From IMG/VR virus record IMGVR_UViG_3300042402_003259, positions 1 to 64,000 of that record: DNA of 64,000 bases; one strand, 5' to 3'. Below the pieces are notes generated by a model that was not told where the DNA came from, did no database searches, and saw only the letters and a program-made list of their open reading frames with translations. Both the position numbers and the translations under genes were made by a program. The DNA comes from a virus. Positions 16,968 to 20,223 of the stretch are shown in pieces (position 1 is the first letter of the stretch; every line of letters begins with the position of its first letter).

Positions 16968-17022
16968 AAAAATAATTATTGAATTCCTAGTTCATTTGGA
17001 TAAAATAAGTGTAATTATCAAT

Positions 17023-17544
17023 ATGAACTACGATACTATCAATTCTTTAGTAGCTAAAGGACTTTCTATTAGAAAGATCTCAACTGAATTAAAAACTAGT
17101 CCTACAAATATTAGATACTGGCTTAAGAAATTCAATATTAAAACTATACCTCGCTCAGAAGTTTCTGATTATAGATATTGTCCACGATGTGAAACAGAAA
17201 AATTAAAGACTGAATTTTATAATCGCCGCAATGGTGTTGGTAATTCTGTTTACTGTAAGCCATGCACTCATACTCAAACTCTTGAAAGACAAAGAGATTT
17301 TAAACAAAAGTGCGTTGATTATAAAGGCGGACAATGCGTTTGTTGTGGTTATAAAAAAACAAATAACGCTTTAGAATTTCATCACTTAGATCCTTTAGAA
17401 AAAGATTTTTGTATTTCTTCAGTAAGATTTACTAAATTTGATGATAGAGTTACAAAAGAATTAAATAAGTGCGCTTTAGTTTGTAGAAACTGTCACGCTG
17501 AAATACACGCTGGAGTTATTGATTTATTACCTTATAAAATATAA
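17023..17544 (+). CDS. HNH endonuclease with N-terminal HTH (free-standing, within the tRNA island)
   Basis: GLSIRKIS..L HTH; CxxC; GG.C..CGY...ALEFHHLDP...LVCRNCHAEIH. Confidence 0.88.
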   Translation: MNYDTINSLVAKGLSIRKISTELKTSPTNIRYWLKKFNIKTIPRSEVSDYRYCPRCETEKLKTEFYNRRNGVGNSVYCKPCTHTQTLERQRDFKQKCVDYKGGQCVCCGYKKTNNALEFHHLDPLEKDFCISSVRFTKFDDRVTKELNKCALVCRNCHAEIHAGVIDLLPYKI

Positions 17545-17757: not shown

Positions 17758-18355
17758 ATCCCACTAGAAGTAAGTCTTTTTATAGAACGGGGCATGAAGC
17801 CCATTGTCCTTCTAATGAGAAATATATTCGATGTTGGTTTACGGGAAAACCTTCAGAGCTTATTATAATCTATAACACGATATCTTGCATAGATCAACCC
17901 ACCCACTCTCCACGACTACGCCGCTTGCAATCGGCGTATCTTTTTTCAGCATCGTGAGTCTGCTGACATCGAATAAAATTATTGCCCATTGTTGACTCAG
18001 TGTAAAGCGACTCAAAACAAGATCGCTTGGGCGCACTGTATGTTTTTTGCAGATCAGGTCGTTCAGTTGCTTGATGTGTTCCCAACTAGATATCGGCTTC
18101 AATCAATCCAAATAGTTCGAAAAGCACTATTTTTTTAATTTGATCTCTGCCCCAATTTGTACCAGATCCTTTCCGAGAGGCTTTTCACTGGCTACCCCAA
18201 ACTACGTCTTATGTAGACGACTGCCCTCATTGCTGCAAAATTGTATTGCGGCTTGGGTAATTACTCCCAAACCGCAATTTTTCCTCATCTGCCGTCCATA
18301 ACACGGATTTACCAAGTCCTGTTAACATGGGTTTGCTCTTGGAAGCTGGATGCAT
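17758..18355 (-). ncRNA. large (~600 nt) structured ncRNA, possibly GOLLD/ROOL-like
   Basis: GC-richer, no credible ORF, many hairpins and long-range helices with G-U pairs favouring the minus strand; lies between tRNAs after a GTTCTTTT leader; boundaries approximate. Confidence 0.7.
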
Positions 18356-18387: not shown

Positions 18388-18856
18388 TGGTGGCGCGAAA
18401 GGGACTTGAACCCTTACGGTATCTCTACCAGCGGATTTTACCTGCCACTATAGTTTTCACTACCAGATTTCTCTGTTTGTGGTCTGGACTATGCCTTTAT
18501 CATATTAATCCGAAGAGCTTTCGTTTAGCTCATTTACAAAGGTAACATCTCCCATTTAAGGGCATTCACCCCGAATTAATTTAGATAGGTGATTATAGTC
18601 TCTACAGCTTCTAATATCTGTCCTTTTTATGAACTTCAATTAGCTTGCCTCGGCGTTGGGTTGTCTCTTGACTAGAAGGTTTCGACTTTTATTAATGTGA
18701 GTTTGAAACCTACAAATATCTGACTTCTCACTACCGCACTAGTGCTGCTTTTCATCAAGAAACGAGCCGTTCACCGAATTTACACCATACTCATACACAA
18801 TTTCTCATGTATGGACCCTTAAGAGTCCGCTATGTCTGCCATTTCATCATCGCGCC
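18388..18856 (-). tRNA. tRNA-Leu(UAA) interrupted by a group I intron (exons 18856-18824 and 18440-18388)
   Basis: Spliced: GGCGCGA...GCGGA CT|TAAAA TCCGC...TTCAAGT...TCGCGCC A CCA. Confidence 0.93.
18441..18823 (-). mobile_element. group I intron (383 nt, ORF-less) at tRNA-Leu position 33/34
   Basis: P1 GGACU/GGUCC with U33-G; P AAATTCGGTGAA; Q AACGCCGAG; R GTAGAGACTATA; S AAGGCATAGTCC; terminal G. Confidence 0.93.
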
Positions 18857-18860
18857 AAAA

Positions 18861-18905
18861 TTTAAAGAACACGCACAATCTACTAGAGATTGCGGCCCCT
18901 GTCAA
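18861..18905 (-). promoter_or_regulatory. sigma70-like promoter followed by a boxA-like GTTCTTTAAA leader
   Basis: TTGACA-N17-TAGATT-N6-GTTCTTTAAA-tRNA-Leu; same arrangement at 19966-20010 and 20096-20139. Confidence 0.75.
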
Positions 18906-18916
18906 GGGGAAAAATT

Positions 18917-18991
18917 TGGCAGTCCATAAGAGAATCGAACTCTTGTTAATAGGTTGAAAACCTACTGTCCTAACCACTAGACGAATGGACC
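18917..18991 (-). tRNA. tRNA-Glu(UUC)
   Basis: GGTCCAT/ATGGACT, loop TTTTCAA, TTCGA, CCA. Confidence 0.92.
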
Positions 18992-18995
18992 GTTT

Positions 18996-19071
18996 TGGTA
19001 GTCCCGGTGGGATTTTCGCCCACAGTCAATCCCTTATAAAGAGAACGCTTTTGATGTTAAGCTACGGGACC
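18996..19071 (-). tRNA. tRNA-Ile(UAU), non-canonical D and T loops
   Basis: GGTCCCG/CGGGACT, loop TTTATAA, T loop CGAAAAT, D loop without GG, CCA. Confidence 0.8.
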
Positions 19072-19095
19072 ACTAAAAATACGCAATAGCCTCTG

Positions 19096-19168
19096 TGGGC
19101 CGTGCTGGACTTGAACCAGCAACCGACGAATTATGAGTTCGCTGCACAAACCATTATGCTAACGGCCC
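19096..19168 (-). tRNA. tRNA-CAU, probably Ile2 (lysidine type); no encoded CCA
   Basis: GGGCCGT/ACGGCCC, loop CTCATAA; GGGCC acceptor typical of Ile2. Confidence 0.85.
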
Positions 19169-19206
19169 ATAGAAACTACTACATATTAAATTTTAAAGAA
19201 CGAAAA

Positions 19207-19356
19207 GAGTAAAGTATAATTCCAATTATGTTTCAGAATATATTACCGAATGACAAACATATTCTTACTCTTTACTCAAATTAAATAAGCAGCGGGAAAC
19301 GTATTTCCATCTATCATAAATAACACACATTATAATGATAGTGACTTCACTGCTTA
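19207..19356 (-). ncRNA. two adjacent ~70-nt three-way-junction elements (19207-19277; 19286-19356)
   Basis: Closing stems GAGTAAAG/CTTTACTC and TAAGCAGTG/CGCTGCTTA, each enclosing one long and one short hairpin. Confidence 0.45.
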
Positions 19357-19379
19357 AAATTTAAAAGAACTGAAAAAAA

Positions 19380-19963
19380 TGGTGCAATCGGCGGGGAACG
19401 ATCCCGCGACTCACAGATTAAACCTACCACTATAGTTTTCACTACCAGTAGAATGTTGTTACATAATTGATTGAATACTAATTACCAATTACTAAACTTC
19501 ATTGGATACAGATTTCTCCCTACTACTGTTTGTGGTCTGGACTATGCCTTTATCATAATTAGCTGTCAGGGGTTCCTCTCTTGCGAGTTTAGCTTACCCG
19601 ACGATTCTCATGCCTTTACCGTGCTAATTTTAGATAGGTGATTATAGTCTCTACACGTTTTTTATTATGAGGCTATAGAATTTATCACAATTAAGTGGCT
19701 AGACGGGTAGCCTAGCAATCATGGTAGGTCACTATTGCGCCTATTTACCCACAATCCTTTCTTCTATTATTTCTCTAGCGTTTGCCTAAAACTTCGCTCG
19801 GCGTTGGGGGCATATATTTACATATTGCAGATTCTTTTGAAATCTGTCATTGCTACCCGTTCACCGAATTTACACCTTACTCATGCACAGTTTCCTATAC
19901 ATGGACCCTTGTTATCTTGCGATAACATCAAGTCTGTTGCTCTACCAACTGAGCTACGATTGC
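19380..19963 (-). tRNA. tRNA-Lys(UUU) interrupted by a group I intron (exons 19963-19931 and 19422-19380)
   Basis: Spliced: GCAATCG TA GCTC...ACAGA CT|TTTAA TCTGT...CGATTGC A CCA. Confidence 0.92.
19423..19930 (-). mobile_element. group I intron (508 nt, ORF-less) at tRNA-Lys position 33/34
   Basis: Same P/Q/R/S core blocks as the tRNA-Leu intron, IGS GGUC, terminal G, larger P6 and P9 insertions. Confidence 0.92.
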
Positions 19964-20019
19964 ATTTTAAAGAACTTCAACATCCTACTTTAGTATGTTG
20001 CCTTTGTCAAGGGGAAACT

Positions 20020-20092: not shown

Positions 20093-20148
20093 AAATTTAA
20101 AGAACGCGATCAATTTACCATACTTTCACTGATTGTCAAGGGGGAAAT

Positions 20149-20223
20149 TGGAGCCTCGCCAGAGACTTCAACTCTGCTCTGAGGTTTACAAAACCCCTGC
20201 ATCGGCATCTATGCTTGCGAGGC
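20149..20223 (-). tRNA. tRNA-Thr(UGU), atypical D/T loops
   Basis: GCCTCGC/GCGAGGC, loop TTTGTAA, T loop TTGAAGT, CCA. Confidence 0.85.

Follow-up and report, generated by a model that had tools for sequence, protein, structure and literature searches.

Two group I introns without open reading frames in the tRNA-Leu(UAA) and tRNA-Lys(UUU) genes of an uncultured freshwater phage

A stretch of 64,000 nucleotides of the virus record IMGVR_UViG_3300042402_003259 (hereafter the window, meaning the whole stretch analysed) carries a tRNA array in which the genes for tRNA-Leu(UAA) and tRNA-Lys(UUU) are each split in the anticodon loop, between positions 33 and 34. We conclude with high confidence that both inserts are group I introns without an open reading frame (ORF), that they belong to the family residing in the anticodon loops of bacterial tRNAs (IC3 in the literature), and that they splice in the way proposed below. 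The parts of the two genes, which span 18388-18856 (Leu) and 19380-19963 (Lys), are as follows.

18824..18856, minus strand: tRNA-Leu(UAA) 5′ exon (acceptor, D arm, 5′ side of the anticodon stem, C32-U33), from ARAGORN on the spliced join and from the bounds found with introns allowed
18441..18823, minus strand: Leu intron, 383 nucleotides (nt), ORF-less group I of the tRNA/IC3 type, from RF00028, the model R1 and the helices
18388..18440, minus strand: tRNA-Leu(UAA) 3′ exon (UAA anticodon, long variable arm, T arm, acceptor, CCA), from ARAGORN
19931..19963, minus strand: tRNA-Lys(UUU) 5′ exon, from ARAGORN
19423..19930, minus strand: Lys intron, 508 nt, ORF-less group I of the sub-lineage of the Leu intron, from R1, RF00028 and the helices
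19380..19422, minus strand: tRNA-Lys(UUU) 3′ exon (UUU anticodon, T arm, acceptor, CCA), from ARAGORN

When the exons were joined by these coordinates, ARAGORN recognized a class II tRNA-Leu(taa) of 86 nt and a tRNA-Lys(ttt) of 76 nt, both with an encoded CCA, confirming the claim of a preliminary description of this DNA that removal of the two inserts restores complete cloverleaves. The rebuilt anticodon loops read CU/UAAAA in Leu and CU/UUUAA in Lys (the slash marks the junction). The insertion site claimed for both genes, 33/34, was likewise borne out; it corresponds to "position 2" in the naming of Williams 2020 (10.1101/2020.01.27.920355), under which the two introns would be Leu.2Ug and Lys.2Ug. 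Standard tRNA scans are blind to both genes, as had been anticipated: neither is in the list of default ARAGORN or in that of the Rfam tRNA model at its gathering score. With introns allowed, ARAGORN returned the Lys gene exactly, as i(34,508), whereas for the Leu gene it found the right bounds with a wrong parse, Phe(aaa) with i(31,385). The intron placement by ARAGORN itself was rejected as unreliable, this misreading being one example.

Both inserts follow U33 and end in G, and in both an internal guide, GGUC, pairs with exon bases G30-A31-C32-U33, so that the 5′ splice site lies after the U of a U-G wobble, exactly as the preliminary description had it. In both introns, the first intron base pairs with the next G after the U33-G pair. 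The core helices P3 to P9, with the P3/P7 pseudoknot, stand in canonical order, and a check by coordinates showed complete pairing of P1 to P9, with P9.0 and the hairpins of P9, at homologous positions of the two introns. The elements, all on the minus strand and, from P1 to P9.0, paired in both introns, are listed here.

P1: Leu 18827-18823/18818-18814; Lys 19934-19930/19908-19904
GCAA hairpin inserted in Lys P1: 19926-19911
P2: Leu 18813-18805/18800-18792 (GAAA loop); Lys 19903-19895/19890-19882
P3: Leu 18786-18783/18591-18588; Lys 19877-19873/19640-19636
P4: Leu 18777-18772/18655-18650; Lys 19867-19862/19803-19798
P5: Leu 18768-18767/18660-18659; Lys 19858-19856/19809-19807
P6: Leu 18649-18647/18608-18606; Lys 19797-19795/19657-19655
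P7: Leu 18600-18595/18492-18487; Lys 19649-19644/19545-19540
P8: Leu 18580-18572/18512-18504; Lys 19628-19623/19563-19558
P9.0: Leu 18482-18479/18448-18445; Lys 19535-19532/19430-19427
Two GAAA hairpins in Leu P9: 18475-18464 and 18462-18451
Extended P9a in Lys: 19528-19523/19451-19446
GAAA hairpin in Lys P9: 19444-19433
Terminal G: Leu 18441; Lys 19423

P2 has 9 base pairs in both introns and covaries between them, as noted earlier: two of the changes are compensatory, and two affect one side only. GAAA loops on P2 and P9 dock on other helices in introns of this kind. The near-identical shared blocks could also be recovered: four blocks aligned over 139 nt (54 nt at 87%, 27 nt at 100%, 32 nt at 100% and 26 nt at 96%). 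No sense-strand ORF of at least 40 amino acids is found inside either intron, in agreement with their description as ORF-less, and neither encodes the homing endonuclease that characterizes mobile homing group I introns. The Leu intron carries insertions of about 100 nt in P5 and about 70 nt in P8; the insertion in Lys P9 measures 97 nt.

We examined family membership with two kinds of covariance model. Rfam RF00028 aligned with both introns over model positions 1-253, at 30.3 bits for Leu (E 2.2e-5) and 13.2 bits for Lys (E 3). None of the 12 seeds of this model is bacterial, and a survey of bacterial introns worked at 18-20 bits (Williams 2020, 10.1101/2020.01.27.920355). A 19-nt motif from the shared P7-P9 region recovered at least 116 viral stretches, and a P4-P6-P7 pattern at least 120 bacterial stretches. 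From such material we aligned tRNA introns of 178-218 nt, 21 from phages and 21 from bacteria (alignment A2), with the window introns left out. In A2, helices P1 to P9, including the P3/P7 pseudoknot, are paired in 93.3% of cells, against 30-42% when the partners are slid by 1-3 columns, and 33 of the 46 pairs show compensatory changes. An earlier MAFFT alignment of three sequences (A1) was discarded for its poor middle part.

The covariance model R1, built from A2 (215 positions, 41 pairs), was searched over both strands of the window. It matched the Leu intron at 18441-18728 (75.1 bits, E 5.6e-21) and the two halves of the Lys intron at 19519-19730 (40.2 bits, E 1.1e-10) and 19757-19935 (18.7 bits, E 2.5e-4), and nothing beyond these two introns on either strand of the 64 kb. 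Since long insertions spoil the threading by R1, the helices were checked by coordinates, as given above. The inserts are thus group I introns, as proposed: R1 matches both and all core helices pair, with RF00028 below its threshold for both. Through R1, they also share a homologous core with the bacterial tRNA anticodon-loop introns of the Leu.3, fMet.2, Ile2.5 and Arg.5 settings. For P1 and P2, 22 introns at site 33/34 were aligned, among which three rows with P1 insertions were misplaced by MAFFT and counted as unpaired. P2 is paired in 94.9% of cells, with a compensatory change at nine of nine pairs, and the P1 pair opposite exon base 31 is A-U in 12 introns and G-C in 7, tracking the exon.

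RNA from lakes supplied evidence of another kind. Six lake metatranscriptome runs contain 22-39% of the window's sampled words, and the RNA evidence consists of the assembled contigs, not the reads, of four of these six runs. In X19 and X20, which differ in study code but share year and habitat, a contig of 123 letters runs through 18763-18818 and then goes back 381 positions to continue at 18438-18504. The two sides of this permuted joint, 18818>18438, match the window perfectly over 56 and 67 letters, and 3 letters fit both sides. The linear order of the DNA cannot yield such a joint. For the Leu intron, the following circle is inferred:

18441..18821, minus strand: inferred Leu intron circle, 381 nt, with terminal G 18441 joined to intron nucleotide 3 (18821)

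At the highest placement of the joint, this circle is the intron minus its first two bases. The joint fits an intron circle made by the terminal G, supporting activity of the Leu ribozyme in nature. Further RNA contigs fall within both introns; those of the Lys intron end at 19520-19528 (in three runs, at the start of the P9 insertion) and at 19915-19920. A look-alike of the P9.0 3′ strand with a terminal G stands at 19519 on the minus strand, offering an alternative end of the R1 match in the Lys intron; the feature at 19519-19528 may reflect a strain difference, cryptic processing or chance.

The splicing route that we propose is that of the known family. Each split gene would be transcribed from its own promoter, the intron would fold, and the guide GGUC would pair with G30-A31-C32-U33, the U33-G wobble marking the 5′ splice site. 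Free guanosine would cut after U33, and the 3′ OH of the exon would attack after the terminal G (18441 in Leu, 19423 in Lys), ligating the exons into the loops CU/UAAAA and CU/UUUAA of mature tRNA-Leu(UAA) and tRNA-Lys(UUU). The freed Leu intron would then circularise through its terminal G onto its third nucleotide. Exon ligation, self-sufficiency without protein and any splicing of the Lys intron are predictions. What is new is the Lys host, the shifted Leu site, the presence of two copies in one array and the RNA from natural samples.

To place the introns among related phages, we compared 17 IMG/VR loci found through the RuvB-like gene that adjoins the array (loci are given by L numbers). 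Their common array order is Thr-Met-Lys-Met-(Ile)-Glu-Leu-Arg-Asn-Tyr. The search for intronless alleles suggested in the preliminary description was successful: tRNA-Lys(UUU) is intronless in nine of the 17 loci (L121, L123, L126, L127, L129, L130, L131, L133 and L134) and split in none, and tRNA-Leu(UAA) is intronless in five (L120, L129, L131, L133 and L134); the remaining loci are incomplete or without the genes. In L126 and L127, tRNA-Leu(UAA) is split at 33/34 by a 287-nt intron, and L120 has a Met(CAU) gene with a 436-nt intron at 33/34. In L062, the Leu gene shows 91% similarity in its first 100 nt and has its intron at the corresponding position. Where relatives carry intronless genes in these slots, similarity to the genes of the window amounts to only about 79% in the Leu 3′ exon, or less. 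Searched exactly, a 29-nt stretch from each 3′ exon had no match in viral contigs, and the Lys stretch had one in metagenome contigs; these exact searches found no intronless copy of precisely these two genes. The metagenome contig L257, which starts inside the intron, matches the Lys intron together with its 3′ exon at 99.6% identity over 460 nt.

The Leu slot itself varies in its tRNA. In L121 (13409-13688), it holds a short class I tRNA with a UAA anticodon and a 204-nt group I intron at 34/35, and in L257 (1810-1885), a short, intronless class I tRNA with the same anticodon and no long variable arm.

While the flanking genes are 87-94% identical in DNA among the relatives, the tRNA units form a patchwork in which similarity breaks at the gene ends, and we propose that tRNA and intron together behave as exchangeable cassettes in a mosaic array. 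In its 5′ and 3′ cores, the Leu intron matches the Leu(UAA) intron of L126/L127 at 98-100% identity, and the P5-P6 domain of the Lys intron (bases 123-305, 183 nt) is 99% identical to that of the Met(CAU) intron of L120. A P7/P3′ signature common to both window introns recurs in 11 of 71 other parsed phage introns; ten of the 11 lie at 33/34 (six in Leu, four in Met/Ile2), and the eleventh is the mis-parsed intron of L062. The two introns had been called paralogous. They do represent, by their common guide, site and P7/P3′ signature, one sub-lineage tied to 33/34 with shuffled peripheral domains, which resides in Leu(UAA) and Met(CAU) genes of related phages and in Lys(UUU) in the window. A recent duplication within this genome is not supported, because each intron is closer to an intron of another phage than to its neighbour. 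In the phage Met genes of L034, L105 and L120, the exon reads AACU and the guide is unchanged, leaving one mismatch, which hints at recent moves between tRNA species. As a possible and still tentative scenario, the sub-lineage may be promiscuous, its guide reading little beyond A31-C32-U33, and may hop among Leu, Met and Lys at 33/34 by reverse splicing or cassette exchange, with its peripheral domains swapped and phage arrays serving as the reservoir. The rationale of this proposal is that A31-C32-U33 is nearly universal in tRNAs.

The preliminary description had implied that such introns are rare in phage tRNA genes, and this did not hold: the family is widespread there, as the at least 116 viral stretches indicate, and its core is common to bacterial tRNA introns. 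Among the matches listed, 82 of 125 motif matches lie inside an ARAGORN split-tRNA call. A U-1/terminal-G option exists in 72 of these 82 calls, and is lacking in the other ten at the intron length given by ARAGORN. The settings found among the matches listed are given below as loci, which are not independent events and include duplicates (the phage Atu_ph07 twice) as well as the two loci of the window.

Leu(UAA) at 34/35: 35 loci
Leu(UAA) at 33/34: 10 loci
CAU at 33/34: 7 loci
Arg(UCU) at 34/35: 7 loci
Lys(UUU) at 33/34: 1 locus (the window)

Other tRNAs have smaller counts among the matches listed. Among the loci compared, the only Lys(UUU) host beyond the window is the near-identical contig L257. 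A seeming bacterial case, "TTT.2" in L222, proved to be Leu(CAA) at position 2, and we claim no bacterial Lys case, since many odd bacterial settings are ARAGORN mis-parses. The Agrobacterium jumbo phage Atu_ph07, a cultured phage (MF403008.1, L001:1240-1601), has an unannotated Leu(UAA) gene split at 34/35 by a 278-nt group I intron; in its record, a coding sequence named "hypothetical protein" (L001 1563-1679) overlaps the last three bases of the intron and the 3′ exon.

Such frequency could be taken to mean that the introns are kept for a benefit to the phage, either by shielding the anticodon region from homing nucleases or by delaying or gating tRNA supply, and the swapping of tRNA units as cassettes and the HNH endonuclease gene inside the array would agree with this. 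However, close relatives thrive with intronless genes at the same slots, which is the pattern of a neutral selfish element, and we regard a benefit as unlikely.

Several observations weigh against our reading of the inserts as introns that splice by the proposed route. Neither intron reaches the RF00028 gathering score of 50 bits, which is a database cut-off and not a defining property of a ribozyme, and neither gave a match at gathering. R1 mis-threads the 5′ half of the Leu intron because of the P5 insertion, and the Leu score rests mainly on P6-P9. The label IC3 reflects the statement of one paper (Williams 2020) together with the shared core sequence rather than a subgroup classifier. The Lys intron has two G-U pairs in P1 and large insertions in P1, P5-P6 and P9, and the T loop of its tRNA is unusual. 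On the RNA side, the circle joint is ambiguous and may lie up to 3 places lower, and the contigs of the four runs contain no exon-exon join for either gene and no junction of any kind for the Lys intron; the exons and the spacers 18912-19045 and 19180-19447 are covered by no contig, and gaps of this kind carry no weight as evidence.

These points raise the question of whether one or both inserts are decayed remnants, and the split genes pseudogenes that yield no working tRNA, which would be most plausible for Lys. The missing ligated-exon RNA, the 13.2 bits of the Lys intron on RF00028 with its two separate R1 matches, the odd T loop, and the intact intronless Lys(UUU) genes at the same slot in related phages can all be read in this sense. 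Decay is difficult to reconcile, however, with core helices that are all intact in both introns, promoter-like sites at both genes, the 99.6% conservation of the Lys intron in a second, independent assembly (L257) and the terminal-G junction in RNA for the Leu intron, and we consider it improbable. The T loop in question, in the 3′ exon at 19380-19422, has A54 and U58 instead of the usual T54 and A58, a swapped reverse-Hoogsteen pair.

That the permuted joint reflects tandemly duplicated DNA of some strain, or an error of assembly, and so says nothing of catalysis in vivo, is improbable: the data are contigs and not reads, and RNA libraries can contain DNA, but the joint occurs in two runs with 56 and 67 perfect letters and only 3 shared, so that no repeat is long enough to mis-join 31-letter words, it lies exactly where attack by the terminal G would place it, and the DNA assemblies seen (the window and L126/L127) hold single copies.

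The two window introns, read as splicing group I introns, can be set beside several known systems. Williams 2020 (10.1101/2020.01.27.920355), a study that covers bacterial genomes only and distinguishes 21 bacterial settings, cites a database in which each of the classical bacterial types, Leu.3Ug, fMet.2Ug, Arg.5Ug and Ile2.5Ug, bears the label IC3. The cyanobacterial and plastid tRNA-Leu(UAA) intron (Leu.3Ug) shares the host tRNA, the lack of an ORF and the U-1/terminal-G chemistry with the Leu intron of the window; A2 aligns phage and bacterial TAA.3 introns with the 33/34 sub-lineage, and R1, built from it, matches the window introns. Leu.3Ug, however, lies at 34/35, one nucleotide further 3′, whereas the Leu intron of the window lies at 33/34, so that the whole anticodon is in the 3′ exon, and differs further in its phage host and its P5 and P8 insertions. 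The cyanobacterial tRNA-fMet intron (fMet.2Ug) uses the same 33/34 site, and bacterial CAT.2 introns share the core and P2, but its guide fits a GGCU exon rather than GACU, and the host tRNA differs. The classical tRNA-fMet intron carries a homing endonuclease ORF. The Azoarcus tRNA-Ile(CAU) and Agrobacterium tRNA-Arg introns (Ile2.5Ug and Arg.5Ug) have the P4-P6-P7 blocks and the GAAA loops on P2 and P9 in common with the window introns, and bacterial CAT.5 and Arg.5 examples are among the R1 seeds; these introns, though, lie after the anticodon (position 5) and have an unlike P9 domain. The window introns presumably resemble the Azoarcus ribozyme itself.

The introns in phage protein genes (T4 td, nrdB and others) share the type of host and are self-splicing group I introns, whereas those of the window are ORF-less and lie in tRNA genes; we also take the window introns to be without the extra P7-P3 helices typical of the T4-type subgroup. 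A 2014 review (PMC3984707) places all phage introns then known in protein genes. In a crAss-like Kolpuevirus (OQ198718.1, L002:520-1575), the DnaB helicase gene is split by an intron with a GIY-YIG endonuclease; the 3′ domain of this intron is 85% identical over 74 nt to the Leu intron of the window, so the same intron family also occurs in phage protein genes. The introns in tRNA genes of Lak megaphages are, in Devoto 2019 (PMC6784885), "enigmatic" and unclassified, with no earlier report known to its authors; they share the phage tRNA setting with the window introns, which are clearly group I. Full-text searches, with subscription journals and supplements outside their reach, found no literature on group I introns in phage tRNA genes.

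If the tentative scenario of a hopping sub-lineage is correct, phage tRNA arrays would be a large overlooked reservoir and mixing ground for bacterial tRNA introns, and the freed introns would persist as circles in natural communities. Studies of codon adaptation, of stop-codon recoding and of how phages escape tRNA-cutting defences draw on counts of phage tRNAs, from which standard finders omit split genes such as these. The window adds a lysine tRNA host not found elsewhere apart from L257, a leucine tRNA split one base off the textbook site, and RNA from natural samples that points to an active ribozyme for Leu. Its close relatives with and without introns provide a ready system for the spread of ORF-less introns, and the commonness of group I introns in phage tRNA genes, barely described so far, merits a proper survey. 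We considered and dropped a special importance of the Lys site as the bond at which an anticodon nuclease cleaves tRNA-Lys; at that bond, the spliced tRNA shows nothing unusual.

The window as a whole is phage DNA, as had been stated: its ORFs match phage families, including rIIA, rIIB, a DnaE-like DNA polymerase, an ATP-dependent protease and a virion structural protein. The polymerase is less than 30% identical to any of 50,697 phage records. At least half of the window's sampled words are present in 18 lake or freshwater DNA runs, and because of this recurrence the source is an uncultured freshwater (lake) phage. The tRNA array occupies about 16.9-20.2 kb on the minus strand. Default ARAGORN reports Tyr, Asn, Arg, Glu, Met and Met there and nine tRNAs in total, and the Rfam tRNA model at gathering gives ten matches, among them an additional UAU tRNA at 18999-19071 on the minus strand. 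This Ile-type tRNA, not called by default ARAGORN, scores 50.4 bits with Rfam and has a mismatched anticodon stem and an odd T loop; in L126/L127 and L062, the same slot holds a tRNA-Ile(tat) that ARAGORN does call. A tRNA-Thr(UGU)-like gene at 20149-20223 on the minus strand immediately follows the RuvB-like gene and is missed by both ARAGORN and Rfam; in the T loop of this gene, a G stands in place of the C of L126, where ARAGORN calls tRNA-Thr.

A free-standing HNH endonuclease gene at 16996-17544 on the plus strand (PHROG 2255, E 2.9e-31) stands between tRNA-Tyr and tRNA-Asn, on the strand opposite to theirs and 844 bases away from the tRNA-Leu gene. Against Pfam, this ORF gave weak helix-turn-helix matches and nothing else; the HNH name comes from PHROGs. 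In nine of the 17 relatives (L121, L122, L125-L127, L129, L131, L133 and L134), the gap between Asn and Tyr is about 10 bases, without the gene, and a stretch 65% alike to it stands elsewhere in the array of L126. In the 680-base spacer between tRNA-Arg and tRNA-Leu, the part 18022-18242 is covered by RNA contigs of X19 and X21 with small indels and is conserved at 84-100% in relatives (97.7% in L257). We found no RNA family and no convincing ORF in this part, which could be an unrecognised small RNA.

Finally, a repeated unit, TTGACA followed after 16-17 bases by TAnnnT and then TTCTTTAAA, has three matches in the window, against 0 expected.

18861..18905, minus strand: promoter-like TTGACA, 17 bases, TAGATT, with the conserved leader, just upstream of the Leu gene
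19966..20010, minus strand: promoter-like TTGACA, 17 bases, TAGGAT, with the conserved leader, just upstream of the Lys gene
20096-20139, minus strand: promoter-like and leader unit, preceding a tRNA-Met gene

The Leu, Lys and Met genes thus each look like a transcription unit of their own, an arrangement that would fit cassette exchange.

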